A stretch of 63,971 bases of DNA, counting the filler, from an uncultured Methanosarcinales archaeon (GTDB lineage: Archaea > Nanobdellota > Nanobdellia > Woesearchaeales > UBA12501): assembly GCA_964397315.1 (NCBI GenBank). It is 7 parts of 4 records of this genome, joined end to end, with 100 filler letters (N's around TTAATTAATTAA, not from the genome) between each part and the next. Parts side by side here need not be neighbours in the genome. Positions count along the whole stretch, not along the records: positions 18,065 to 27,053 come from CAYNHV010000001.1; 6 more parts are not named here. One strand, written 5' to 3'. How positions within the stretch are numbered: position 1 is the stretch's first letter; each line of letters begins with the position of its first letter. Position numbers: made by a program. Shown here in pieces: positions 24,001 through 27,000 of the stretch.

Positions 24001-27000
24001 TGTCCTGTCAAGAGGGTTACTCAAATCGCTCTCAAGGCCTGTTGACTGCGGTATCAGGCTGAGGGGGAAGCCTCTTTTCGGCCCCCACAAGACGATAAGG
24101 GGGGTTGTTGTGGGCGTGGCTGCAGCGCTTATAACGTTCCAGGTCCAGAAAAGCATTTACGGCATTGACTTCTTCAGGAGCATAAGCATTGTTGATTACC
24201 ACTCAATGTATATCTCTTACTTTCTCCTGCCCGGCCTCGTTCTCGGCTGCGGCGCTCTGCTGGGTGACATGATTGAGAGCATGTTCAAGAGGCAGTTCAG
24301 CATAAATCCGGGAAAGAGCTGGATACCCTTTGACCAGATTGATTTCATCATAGGGGCTTTGCTTCTTATATCGCTGATATACATCCCCTCATGGAAGGTT
24401 ATTGTGATGCTGCTTGTCCTGACTCCGGCTCTTCACATAGCAACAAACCATCTAGCCTACTATCTTAAGCTGAAGAAAGAAAAGTGGTAGCGCAGTGACA
24501 AAGAATGAGATGTTTGACAGCAGTATGTAGGAGATCTGCTGCTTCCGGGTTCTCTTCTCGTTTTCCATTGCGCATATTGTTCCTGATGCAAGCCCCATTA
24601 TGAATATGAGCGAGGCTGCGAGGGTTACCACTCCGCTGAACTGGGAAAGCACACCCATTATCGCCCCTGCGAGAGGATATATTATTCTTATGTCCTCCAC
24701 TTCCCTCAGGAACCTGAAGTAGACCGCAACTCCTATCAGAACAATGATTCCTAAAGCCGGCTCCTGGATGTACAACAGAAGAAGCATGAGAAGCACGGTC
24801 ATGATGTCCTTGAGAGCCATGAAATACCTCCTGCCATCCTTGAGCTCCTCACTCGCAAGAACAGCCAGGATGAAGCCTCCTGCAAGGCCAAGGTATGCTA
24901 CAATGGACATAATCAGGTAATTCAGGAAGGTCACCATTCTGAATGCCCCCATTGTATCAGAAGGTCAGGCTCAAGGTCCCCCATCTCAGGGATGTCGCAC
25001 GCCCCAAAACAGGTTTCAAGCCATATAACCGGCTCAGCAGATGTTTCCTCTCTTATGCTGTCAGCTATCTCCCCTGCCCTTGGCTTCAGGCCGTCAGGCA
25101 GCTGTATGCAGACGCTTCTGGCCTTGCTTTTCCTTATCTCAGAAACAGCATTCTCAATCTCCAGGTCATAATCTGTTCTTACCATGCTATATCAGGGTTT
25201 GAATCCTTCTCTTCCTTTTGAGTGTGGCTTCCTGCGTAACCGCAGGCTCCGCATATGTAATAGCCCTCATCCCCTCTCTGCACCCAGCTCATGTCTGTTG
25301 AGCCGCATTTCGGGCACTTGTTCACTGAGGTCATTTTTCCGCAGCTGCAGCCTCATTGAGCTCTTTGAGGAACTTGCCAACATCAATGCCATGCGCGGCA
25401 GCTCCCTGCTCAACAGTCTCAAACTGGGCCACATGGCAGCCTATGCAGTGCATGCCGTGCCTGAACATGACTTCCGCAGTCTCAGGATACTTCTCAACAA
25501 CATCTCCTATTGGCATGTCCTTGCTTATCAGCTGCTTTCCTTCTTCTTTGCTCTTGTTTTCCTTGCTTTTTTCTGCCATTTGGAAAAGGTTAGAAAGAGC
25601 ATTTTTAAAGGTTTTGATGGGTGAAGACGCCCCCGCCGGGATTTGAACCCGAGTCTTCGCCTTACTCCCCTTGGTCGAGAGGGCGAAATGATTCTCCGGC
25701 AGGCCATATTATGCGGCATGTGGCCGGACTACACTACGGGGGCAGTGATTATATCAGCTCTTTTTGGTCGTGGGATTTCCGAGCAAAGCGAGGAATATCC
25801 CACTTAGCGTTGCGTCCGAGGGGAGCGTAACCCGCTCCGGTAGCTACACTACGGGGGCAGTGATTATATCAGCTCTTTTCCGCCTTCCTTGTCCTCTTTT
25901 ATGTGGATCACATTCACAGGGCATCCCTGCGCTGCTCTCATGTTACATTCAAGCTCTTCCTCGCTTATGCTTGTCTTTTTTGGGGATGCCTTTCCATCAT
26001 CTTTCATCTCCCAGTTGTCCTCGCAGTTTGCAGCGCATGCTCCGCAGCCAATGCATCCTTCCCTATTCTGTTCTATCTTGTATTCTGCCATTGTTTCACT
26101 TCTTTTCTTTCTTCCACGGGCCCGCAGGGATTTGAACCCCGGACCTTTCGGTCTCTCTTCAGAGTTAAGAGCCGAATGCTCTAGCCAGACTGAGCTACGA
26201 GCCCTTAAAATGCTTGAAACCGGATTTATTTATAAAATTTATTGAAAATGGCTTTGCGCCATTTTCAAGACTAAAAATTTGACCATCTAAGATGCAAATC
26301 CGTTAATACCCCACCTTTAGGGTGTGGTTAGGATTTGCTTTATAAGATAATGGTCAAATTTTTATTATGCGGCTGCCGGGACTTTCGGCAGCTGGCATTC
26401 AACGAATGCCTGGCGTGGGATCCCTTGCAGGATCTGTGGGCCTTTCTGCTTCGAACCCGGGCACCTGCCTTGGGAGGGCAGTGTCATACCGCTAGACTAC
26501 AGCCGCACAATAGGGTCAGTTTATGGTATGGTTATAAATCTTTTGATGAGAAATGCAGGTGATGCAAGAAAGAAAACACGCCGCGGCCCGGATACAGGAA
26601 CGAGCCTTTTGATTAAAGCCTCGGGAAAACTCAGGCAGCTCCTAGTGCTTGCGTACCGGAGCTCCCTTAGGATATATTTACAGAAACCGTTTTCAACATT
26701 GTTGATTCGGAGGATTCCGAGCGAAGCGAGGATATCCTCCTTAATGGCCGGATCAAGGAAGAAGACCCTTGTCGGGAAAACTCAGGCAGCTCCTAGTGCT
26801 TGCGTACCGGAGCTCCCTAACGCCGCGGCCCGGATTCGAACCGGGATATCCCGAAGGAAACCGGCTATTTTTGCTGAAAATCTATGATTTTCACCACTCA
26901 AGGCCGGCGCAGTACCAGATTGTGCCACCGCGGCAATGGCAGTTGTGGAAACAGTGGGTTTTATAAAGCTTTTTATGGGGTCAGTATCTCCGAAGGGATT

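Follow-up and report, generated by a model that had tools for sequence, protein, structure and literature searches.

The diphthamide synthesis enzyme Dph2 of this archaeon (genome G000) is encoded as two separate genes at distant loci, one for an 84-aa N-terminal piece and one for a 214-aa C-terminal piece, and this split, described in an earlier note, is confirmed here. Dph2 is the 2-(3-amino-3-carboxypropyl)histidine synthase, a [4Fe-4S] enzyme of the non-canonical radical-SAM type, and it catalyses the opening step of diphthamide formation on EF-2. Very likely, the archaeal Dph2 gene has undergone a true fission here, and two unlinked genes would supply two subunits of one enzyme. The N piece gene lies in the window, that is, the whole stretch of 63,971 nt analysed, a mosaic that lacks the C piece gene and whose positions 18065-27053 correspond to C1:145865-154853.

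Coverage of Dph2 by the two ORFs

The features on which the analysis rests are the following.

24931..25185, minus strand: N piece of Dph2, 84-aa ORF, ATG to TGA
24931..24937, minus strand: N piece stop TGA (24931-24933) overlapping the ATG of the downstream membrane-protein ORF (..GAATGGTGACC..)
24997..24999, minus strand: codon of N piece Cys63 in the ..FGACD.. motif, first [4Fe-4S] ligand by alignment to 3lzc, 6bxm and 6q2d
25009..25011, minus strand: codon of N piece Cys59 (..TCFGAC..), invariant and four residues ahead of ligand Cys63
25179..25185, minus strand: N piece start ATG (25183-25185) overlapping the TGG TAA of the upstream zinc-ribbon ORF (..GCATGGTAAG..)
25179-25334, minus strand: zinc-ribbon ORF of 51 aa, upstream of the N gene
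25331-25579, minus strand: DUF1858 gene, upstream of the N gene
25864-26091, minus strand: Fer4_15 ferredoxin gene, upstream of the N gene
C17:24020-24664 (L001 1453-2097), minus strand: C piece of Dph2, 214-aa ORF, ATG to stop

The coordinates, lengths, model positions and NCBIfam names given earlier for the two genes were all reproduced, as was their placement on different contigs with a start and a stop codon each. Residues 29-83 of the N piece match positions 1-56 of the 302 of Pfam family PF01866 (Diphthamide_syn; E 6e-11, 42.7 bits, cut-off 33.2 bits), and the piece matches positions 1-81 of the 320 of NCBIfam TIGR00322, ‘Dph1/Dph2 domain’ (71.3 bits, cut-off 35 bits). It aligns with residues 6-84 of the solved Dph2 6q2d_A and 7-84 of 6bxm_A, spans the enzyme's first alpha/beta unit and ends just past a conserved ..GHSEW. 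The C piece, whose ATG is preceded 6 nt upstream by GAGGAG, takes up positions 65-270 of PF01866 (132.7 bits), positions 92-314 of TIGR00322 (127.1 bits) and residues 93-293 of 6bxm_A (327 aa; E 1.3e-29). Both pieces thus pass the cut-offs of the two families and cover the models jointly. When the whole genome was searched with PF01866, three candidates were scored and only two matches emerged, the N ORF and C17:24068-24670 on the minus strand (133.5 bits, positions 61-270). With the equivalog model TIGR03682 (arCOG04112), the N piece (57.9 bits) and the C piece (145.6 bits) both remained below the cut-off of 202.8, as expected of a split gene; a fused relative scored 269.7 bits. Archaeal Dph2 is one polypeptide of ∼330 aa, whereas this genome encodes 84 aa on C1 and 214 aa on C17.

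Solved Dph2 consists of three similar domains. On the fused relative, the pieces cover residues 4-82 and 90-299, and the gap between them falls in the loop at 78-88, between strands 73-77 and 89-92, a location taken from the secondary structure of the predicted model of that protein (pLDDT 88.7). The C piece stops about 30 residues short of the end of the solved enzymes.

The earlier note had not mapped the cluster-binding cysteines. Alignment to 3lzc, 6bxm and 6q2d located all three [4Fe-4S] ligands, one in the N piece (Cys63, GACD) and two in the C piece (Cys66, GQVLGC; Cys196, ACPR). According to PMC11048331, the ligands of PhDph2 are Cys59, Cys163 and Cys287; N piece Cys63 is the equivalent of the first of these, which in P. 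horikoshii Dph2 is followed by Asp60. The ligand cysteines do not vary in any of the 36 aligned N pieces or of the 40 aligned C pieces. Relatives of the N piece also keep unchanged the Asp beside the ligand cysteine and a QLPDGLKP stretch, and the C piece contains an invariant GSGxFHP stretch. N piece Cys59 is likewise invariant in the 36 aligned N pieces; 6q2d and 6bxm share this cysteine, which 3lzc lacks.

The rest of the pathway was found intact, in agreement with the earlier description: Dph5 (301.7 bits), Dph6 (239.8 bits) and aEF-2 (1044 bits) are uninterrupted, and the last carries the target histidine in a ..HEDAIHRG.. motif. We considered whether a Dph3-like electron donor is encoded beside the N gene. 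In none of 20 relatives did the neighbourhood of the N gene yield a BLASTP match (E<1e-3) to the zinc-ribbon, DUF1858 or Fer4_15 protein, and the idea was dropped. In the same neighbourhood, an ARAGORN call of ‘tRNA-Stop (tta)’ at 26117-26204 became a tRNA-Lys(CTT) with a 13-nt intron once introns were allowed, and by Rfam this stretch is an ordinary tRNA.

Distribution and arrangement in relatives

The two-piece format had been called conserved on the basis of ten short hits out of ten for each piece, a figure that is now far surpassed. We found 1231 relatives of the N piece, the best 120 of which measure 78-98 aa and are 59-100% identical, and 952 relatives of the C piece, the best 120 of which measure 202-230 aa in a search that admitted proteins of 117-375 aa. 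The closest relatives of both pieces are labelled Woesearchaeota or Nanoarchaeota archaeon in the source records. Judged from sequence conservation, both pieces are under purifying selection.

Both pieces were present as separate genes in 99 of the 121 genomes of the order, 98 with the split form only plus G098, which has a fused gene as well as a dispersed pair; G045 has the fused gene only. Of the 64 genomes that represent other orders in a class-level sample, 53 likewise had both pieces as separate genes, and throughout the class the break falls at the same profile position, ∼59-62. Adjacency in relatives, a point left open by the earlier note, was counted in the 98 split-only genomes: the pieces are dispersed in 84 and adjacent or near each other in 14. 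In two single-contig genomes they lie 259 kb (G085) and 319 kb (G025) apart. In 14 relatives with adjacent pieces, the N ORF terminates, with a Trp-stop in 11, and the C ORF starts at the N stop or a few bases away, usually after a GGAGG-like stretch.

Downstream of the N piece, the window contains a membrane-protein ORF that has only weak matches to membrane families; among 20 relatives, 12 also have a membrane-protein gene after the N gene and in the same orientation. Four genomes of other orders carry a gene for a membrane protein of 93-99 aa between the N and C pieces. An hhalign probability of 0.6% indicated that this protein and the one in the window are unrelated.

Twenty of the 121 genomes carried one piece only, 9 of them the C piece and 11 the N piece. 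Ten of these, including genomes rated 93-100% complete, were searched again with our own profiles at E<=1. This rescued a partial C match in G114 and a faint N match (E 0.007) in G037; the other eight remained single, with no C piece found at this threshold in G043, G076, G110 and G027, and no N piece in G059, G064, G107 and G052.

Two probable subunits of one enzyme and the competing readings

The predicted complex of the N and C pieces scored 0.69, compared with 0.00 for the best of three controls, a value that expresses the model's confidence and may stem from a solved Dph2 remembered by it, in which case it would reflect likeness and not binding of these copies. Of 157 solved complexes, 116 reached the mark for this score, as did 2 of 215 mismatched pairs; these figures apply only roughly because our own alignments were used in the prediction. 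Contacts agreed between runs by at least 95%, and the pLDDT of the partner was at least 75. The listing of the predicted interface does not include the cysteines. We treat binding of N to C as a prediction, and the reading of the pair as a conserved trans-split enzyme, with products predicted to assemble, is supported.

A functional separation of the pieces, in which the C piece would work alone or with only two cysteine ligands while the N piece would be an accessory, regulatory or unrelated protein, strikes us as unlikely. Such a separation would be in keeping with the genomes that hold a single piece, eight of the ten re-searched having stayed single despite ratings of 93-100%, and one piece may be able to do without the other; also, the N gene has its ties with genes other than the C gene, as the membrane-protein gene that follows it illustrates. 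However, N-only genomes are about as frequent as C-only ones, as would be predicted from random loss in draft bins but not from one-sided dispensability, so that the single-piece genomes fit binning losses of two unlinked genes. Moreover, the N piece has kept its ligand cysteine, the adjacent Asp and QLPDGLKP, the pieces occur together in most genomes of both samples, and a confident interface between them is predicted.

It is very improbable that the ORFs are remnants of a broken gene in an organism that has lost the first diphthamide step or performs it otherwise. Some archaea are indeed described as being without diphthamide genes (PMC6143161), and G096, rated 100% complete, showed no PF01866 match at all. 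Yet thousands of intact homologues of both pieces exist with invariant catalytic residues, the two pieces span the family end to end without overlap, and Dph5, Dph6 and the EF-2 target histidine have all been retained.

We see scarcely any case for RNA trans-splicing or a split intein that would join the products into one Dph2 of normal length. A precedent comes from a relative, Nanoarchaeum equitans, for which PMC3655853 lists tRNA halves joined in trans and two split genes encoding DNA polymerase I. Here, by contrast, the N piece ends 2 residues past its last aligned residue and the C piece is aligned from residue 4, leaving no surplus residues at either junction end and thus no room for intein halves. 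The two add up to 298 aa against 328 aa for the fused relative, PF01866 is the only Pfam family in either piece, with no intein family among the matches, and both genes carry start and stop codons of their own, the adjacent pairs showing an ordinary stop-start junction.

Finally, we give practically no credence to a mis-assembly, frameshift error or binning mix-up that makes one gene seem two, even though the draft assembly comprises 61 contigs and places the N gene within 1.9 kb of where C1 ends, since what follows the N ORF on its contig is an unrelated membrane-protein gene, with no Dph2-like sequence 3′ of its stop in any frame, since contigs from two further runs of the same study (X2, spanning 24639-25669, and X3, spanning 24818-25157 and including the N piece stop codon) show 0 differences in this region, and since the two-gene format recurs in the single-contig genomes G085 and G025.

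According to the favoured reading of a true fission, the break lies in the loop that follows the third beta-strand. The 84-aa subunit would contribute the first alpha/beta unit with the first ligand, Cys63, and the 214-aa subunit the remainder, with ligands Cys66 and Cys196 and the GSGxFHP stretch. The two genes would be transcribed and translated separately from unlinked loci, and their proteins are predicted to associate non-covalently, with the cluster presumably held by cysteines of both chains. By analogy with the single-chain homodimer, the active form is probably (N.C)2, and its product would then be handled by the intact Dph5 and Dph6. While the sequences, their conservation and co-occurrence, the mapping of the ligands and the pathway context are observed directly, the sharing of the cluster, the oligomer state and the activity of split Dph2 are inferred.

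It is conceivable, though we lean slightly against it, that the fission arose once, early in this DPANN class, as a rare genomic change marking a large clade. In a tree of the C region rooted by assumption, 62 of 62 split genes fell on one side of a branch with an SH-aLRT of 97, and the constant profile position of the break also speaks for this reading. Under the same assumed root, the forms with a small membrane-protein gene between the pieces branched close to the base, a hint that the fission came about by insertion. A relative of the fused 328-aa Dph2 is encoded by 291 species genomes, and the best 80 of them offered only close fused relatives as an outgroup for rooting.

Relation to known forms of Dph2 and significance

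The earlier note had implied that the split is new, and this did not hold. Split Dph1/2 in DPANN archaea was reported by Narrowe et al. 2018 (PMC6143161), and the review of Dombrowski et al. 2019 (PMC6349945) names Parvarchaeota, Pacearchaeota, Woesearchaeota and Altiarchaeota. Podar et al. 2013 (PMC3655853) list Dph2 of the Yellowstone nanoarchaeon Nst1 among split protein genes, with Nst 222 and Nst 440 as its two widely separated parts. The split Dph2 of DPANN archaea, Woesearchaeota included, is therefore already known. The present case is the same in kind as those of the first two papers, with N- and C-terminal parts recurrently encoded by two genes, and it resembles Nst1 in having two distant genes but belongs to a different lineage. 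Relative to the passages of these papers that treat Dph1/2, what is added here is the mapping of the ligands, the position of the break, the adjacency counts and the bicistronic junctions; those passages in Narrowe et al. and Dombrowski et al. likewise contain no test of assembly.

Compared with the single-chain Dph2 homodimer (3lzc/3lzd of P. horikoshii; 6bxm; 6q2d), the two pieces share PF01866, TIGR00322 and the order of motifs, and in both forms the three cysteine ligands come from three parts of the chain. The single-chain enzyme, however, is one polypeptide of 327-342 aa, while the pieces, at 84 and 214 aa, lack ∼8 linker and ∼30 C-terminal residues. The Pacearchaeota-type Dph2 of this class, fused and 328 aa long, occurs in G045 and G098 and, in the class-level sample, in G135, G162, G166 and G175. 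It shares the ligands and the Pfam family (268.8 bits), but one ORF encodes it, its identity is only 38% to the N piece and 26% to the C piece, and its members group on a tree branch of their own. The eukaryotic Dph1-Dph2 heterodimer, which works with Dph3, is another two-polypeptide enzyme of the Dph2 family (PMC11048331); as described there, it is made of two full-length paralogues, each with a cluster, whereas here one chain is cut in two. Near the N gene, no conserved Dph3-like partner was found in the 20 relatives.

To a specialist in DPANN genomics the split will come as no surprise, and it matters mainly for practice, in the use of markers and in annotation. Dph2 is among the single-copy markers, and Narrowe et al. 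(PMC6143161) point out that completeness estimates are distorted when the gene is split; in addition, because both halves fall below the TIGR03682 cut-off, annotation by the equivalog model misses both. If a single early fission were true, it would set all split lineages apart from those with the fused 328-aa gene, and a [4Fe-4S] cluster would sit between two separately encoded subunits, so that cluster insertion and subunit assembly would be one event. In biological terms, the split pair is a clean natural experiment, and it lends itself directly to the question whether two chains can share a [4Fe-4S] cluster.

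The two Dph2 genes and their surroundings

The earlier note described Dph2 as encoded by two separate proteins on different contigs, and both statements stand. A search of the 61-contig, 93% complete genome with the PF01866 (Diphthamide_syn) profile gave exactly two matches, one being an 84-aa N-terminal ORF on contig C1 (the N piece) and the other lying at C17:24068-24670 (-; 133.5 bits, profile positions 61-270), where a 214-aa ORF was found (the C piece). The N piece matches only positions 1-56 of the 302 in that profile (E 6e-11, 42.7 bits, cut-off 33.2). Similarly, NCBIfam TIGR00322 ('Dph1/Dph2 domain') is covered at positions 1-81 of 320 by the N piece (71.3 bits) and at positions 92-314 by the C piece. 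Among solved structures, the N piece aligns with residues 6-84 of 6q2d_A (E 1.7e-11), with 7-84 of 6bxm_A and, more weakly, with 3lzc_A, and the C piece with residues 93-293 of the 327-aa chain 6bxm_A (E 1.3e-29). Because these coverages are complementary, the two pieces tile the Dph2 family without overlap. The TIGR03682 equivalog cut-off of 202.8 bits is reached by neither piece alone (N 57.9, C 145.6), and no Dph2-like sequence was found 3′ of the N ORF in any frame.

Dph2 genes and neighbours of the N gene (window positions unless stated)
21794-21887, 26117-26204 and 26821-26934 (all -): tRNA genes with introns, 88-114 nt
23479-23919 (+): DUF212 (divergent PAP2), by Pfam
23885-24490 (+): CDP-archaeol synthase (CarS), by Pfam
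24452-24952 (-): multi-pass membrane protein, 166 aa, only weak Pfam matches
24931-25185 (-): Dph2 N piece, 84 aa, ATG-to-TGA ORF
25179-25334 (-): zinc ribbon, 51 aa, CxxC..CxxC, upstream of the N gene
25331-25579 (-): DUF1858, 82.9 bits
25864-26091 (-): single-cluster ferredoxin, Fer4_15, upstream of the N gene
1453-2097 (-) of the fetched locus L001: Dph2 C piece, 214 aa

On the same strand, the stop of the zinc-ribbon ORF overlaps the N-piece start, and the ATG of the downstream membrane-protein ORF overlaps its stop. The C-piece ATG is preceded, 6 nt upstream, by a GAGGAG stretch, and 22 nt separate the C piece from the stop of an upstream DUF498 gene. Positions 18065-27053 are the final 8989 bases of C1; the window is a mosaic of pieces of C1 (three), C2, C4 (two) and C49 joined by N runs around TTAATTAATTAA spacers, and reading features across 12367-12466, 17965-18064, 27054-27153 and similar joins is invalid. 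The stretch with the N ORF is present in three sequencing runs of one study. The assembly may itself derive from X1; contigs of X2 (over 24639-25669) and X3 (over 24818-25157) show no differences to the window, an agreement of weak independence because all three runs share one study.

As for the neighbours, in 12 of 20 relatives, as in the window, the N gene is followed on its own strand by the gene of a ∼150-170-aa membrane protein with an EELKxGxxYF stretch, and no functional tie of the 24452-24952 protein to diphthamide was evident from the N-gene neighbourhood in those 20. The DUF212 and CarS genes converge on the membrane-protein gene, and several relatives also have them close to the N gene. 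The zinc ribbon, DUF1858 and ferredoxin form a run of small redox-looking genes 5′ of the N gene, and were found beside it in none of the 20 relatives. Default ARAGORN called 26117-26204 a 'tRNA-Stop (tta)', rejected since with introns allowed it is tRNA-Lys(CTT) with a 13-nt intron, and gave an unknown type for another of the three tRNAs.

Break position, cluster ligands and the predicted complex

On a fused 328-aa relative (1426-2412 of L003, a locus of genome G098), residues 4-82 correspond to the N piece and 90-299 to the C piece. The solved Dph2 enzyme has three similar domains. The AlphaFold model of the fused relative (mean pLDDT 88.7) places a loop at 78-88, between strands 73-77 and 89-92. 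The cut falls within this loop, after a strand-helix-strand-helix-strand unit.

The earlier note left the cluster-binding cysteines unmapped. According to passages of PMC11048331, the [4Fe-4S] ligands of PhDph2 are Cys59 (followed by Asp60), Cys163 and Cys287. By alignment, all three have equivalents: Cys63 of the N piece (..GACD..), and Cys66 (GQVLGC) and Cys196 (ACPR) of the C piece. The first is invariant in 36/36 aligned N pieces and the other two in 40/40 aligned C pieces, where the stretches GSGxFHP and KxGQ are likewise invariant. As the ligands are divided between the pieces, the cluster site would require residues of both polypeptides.

Prediction of the N + C complex, with alignments for both chains, scored 0.69 (runs 0.68, 0.69 and 0.70), the best of three controls scoring 0.00; it passed a mark reached by 116/157 solved complexes and 2/215 mismatched pairs, counts that are approximate here because own alignments were used. 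At least 95% of contacts agreed between runs, with partner pLDDT of at least 75, and the confident interface sets N residues 26-42, 51-58 and 66-71 against C residues 136-148 and 168-187. Since Dph2 structures are solved, this pass may be a memory of the single-chain fold; it demonstrates likeness and not binding of these copies.

The rest of the pathway is intact, as had been claimed for Dph5 and Dph6: Dph6 (C1:126311-126979; PF01902, 239.8 bits), Dph5 (C1:137035-137778; TIGR00522, 301.7 bits) and aEF-2 (TIGR00490, 1044 bits) are all uninterrupted, and the EF-2 motif ..HEDAIHRG.., which holds the target histidine, is present. The most likely mechanism is a predicted two-subunit Dph2 in which the N and C chains would associate non-covalently and bind the cluster together.

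Arrangement of the pieces in relatives

The two-piece format proved to be conserved. Of 1231 relatives of the N piece (46-147 aa, E≤1e-3), the top 120 span 78-98 aa in length and 59-100% in identity; the best 120 of 952 C-piece relatives measure 202-230 aa within an eligible range of 117-375 aa. Many are named by their sources 'diphthamide synthesis protein' or '...histidine synthase subunit', from a Woesearchaeota or Nanoarchaeota archaeon. Arrangements were surveyed by combining the coordinates of PF01866 and N-piece profile searches.

Dph2 in 121 Woesearchaeales genomes, the window genome included
Both pieces, different contigs (adjacency across a contig break possible): 78, including unpublished G112
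Both pieces, one contig, 63 kb to 1.04 Mb apart: 6 (G022, G025, G028, G031, G085, G097)
Pieces adjacent or near, one strand: 14
Fused open frame, 330 aa: 2 (G045, G098)
C piece only: 9
N piece only: 11
Neither piece: 1 (G096)

Dph2 in 64 genomes of other orders of the class, each at least 80% complete
Both pieces, separate matches, broken at the same profile position (∼59-62): 53
Fused gene: 5 (G130, G135, G162, G166, G175)
Pieces in frame, TAA between: 1 (G121)
N piece only: 2; C piece only: 2; none: 1

Adjacency in relatives had been left open by the earlier note. In 11 of the 14 adjacent or near genomes the matched stretches lie no more than 92 nt apart; the others are G006 (overlapping), G049 (in-frame TAG) and G040 (511 nt apart). 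Of 14 adjacent loci, 11 close the N ORF with Trp-stop, as does the window; the C ORF begins at the N stop or a few bases later, often as TAATG or TGATG (starts approximate, by a first-start rule), and in most loci a GGAGG-like stretch lies inside the final N codons. These pairs represent normal coupled cistrons and do not stem from frameshift errors.

Ten single-piece genomes were searched again with custom profiles (E≤1). The C piece was still absent from G043 (100% complete), G076 (96%), G110 (93%) and G027 (94%), with a partial one in G114; the N piece was still absent from G059 (99%), G064 (98%), G107 (96%) and G052 (95%), with a faint match in G037 (E 0.007). Such genomes speak against a strict two-subunit reading. 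About as many genomes have N alone as have C alone; this balance is consistent with two unlinked genes dropping out of draft bins at random and falls short of proof that both are always needed. G096, rated 100% complete and with neither a PF01866 nor an N-piece profile match, is one genome of the order that may have lost diphthamide synthesis.

Fused forms and the origin of the split

The fused 328-aa gene (G098, G045) belongs to a tight family (best 120 matches 67-100% identical) named Pacearchaeota, Nanoarchaeota or Woesearchaeota archaeon by the sources, and 291 species genomes encode a relative. G098 holds, besides the fused gene, a split pair at C1:741126-741671 and C1:803719-803949, 62 kb apart; this may be either redundancy, the fused gene having arrived by transfer, or a two-enzyme state.

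A 76-row tree of the C region (IQ-TREE quick search, LG+G4, SH-aLRT only) was built from all fetched C-bearing loci plus 7 of 80 fused loci, the other 73 being excluded, and rooted on the fused family by assumption. Thirteen fused rows cluster together (support 99), G130, whose fused gene encodes 296 aa, adjoins the split genes, and a branch with support 97 has all 62 split genes on one side. One nested group (support 96) unites the adjacent forms with the near case G040 (L071) and with the C gene (L177) of G185, where no N piece was found. Since 37/73 inner branches lack support and the tree has no outside group, it is compatible with one origin of the split but does not show it. In four other-order genomes (G178, G161, G184, G170) a conserved membrane-protein gene of 93-99 aa, matching no Pfam family, lies between N and C on the same strand (L074 1273-1554, L075 1244-1543, L076 1785-2078, L077 1768-2061), a hint of a possible insertion alongside the fission.

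Split Dph2 is already in print for the same lineage. Passages of Narrowe et al. (PMC6143161) describe concatenating the halves of split Dph1/2 for trees and caution against Dph1/2 as a marker; those of Dombrowski et al. 2019 (PMC6349945) give Parvarchaeota, Pacearchaeota, Woesearchaeota and Altiarchaeota as the split groups, and those of Podar et al. 2013 (PMC3655853) a nanoarchaeon with split Dph2 (Nst 222 and 440). Taken together, the results confirm the split and support the interpretation of the earlier note. What is added here is detail, and no new kind of thing: the break position, the division of the ligands, the adjacency statistics, the bicistronic junctions, and the fused and split forms together in G098.
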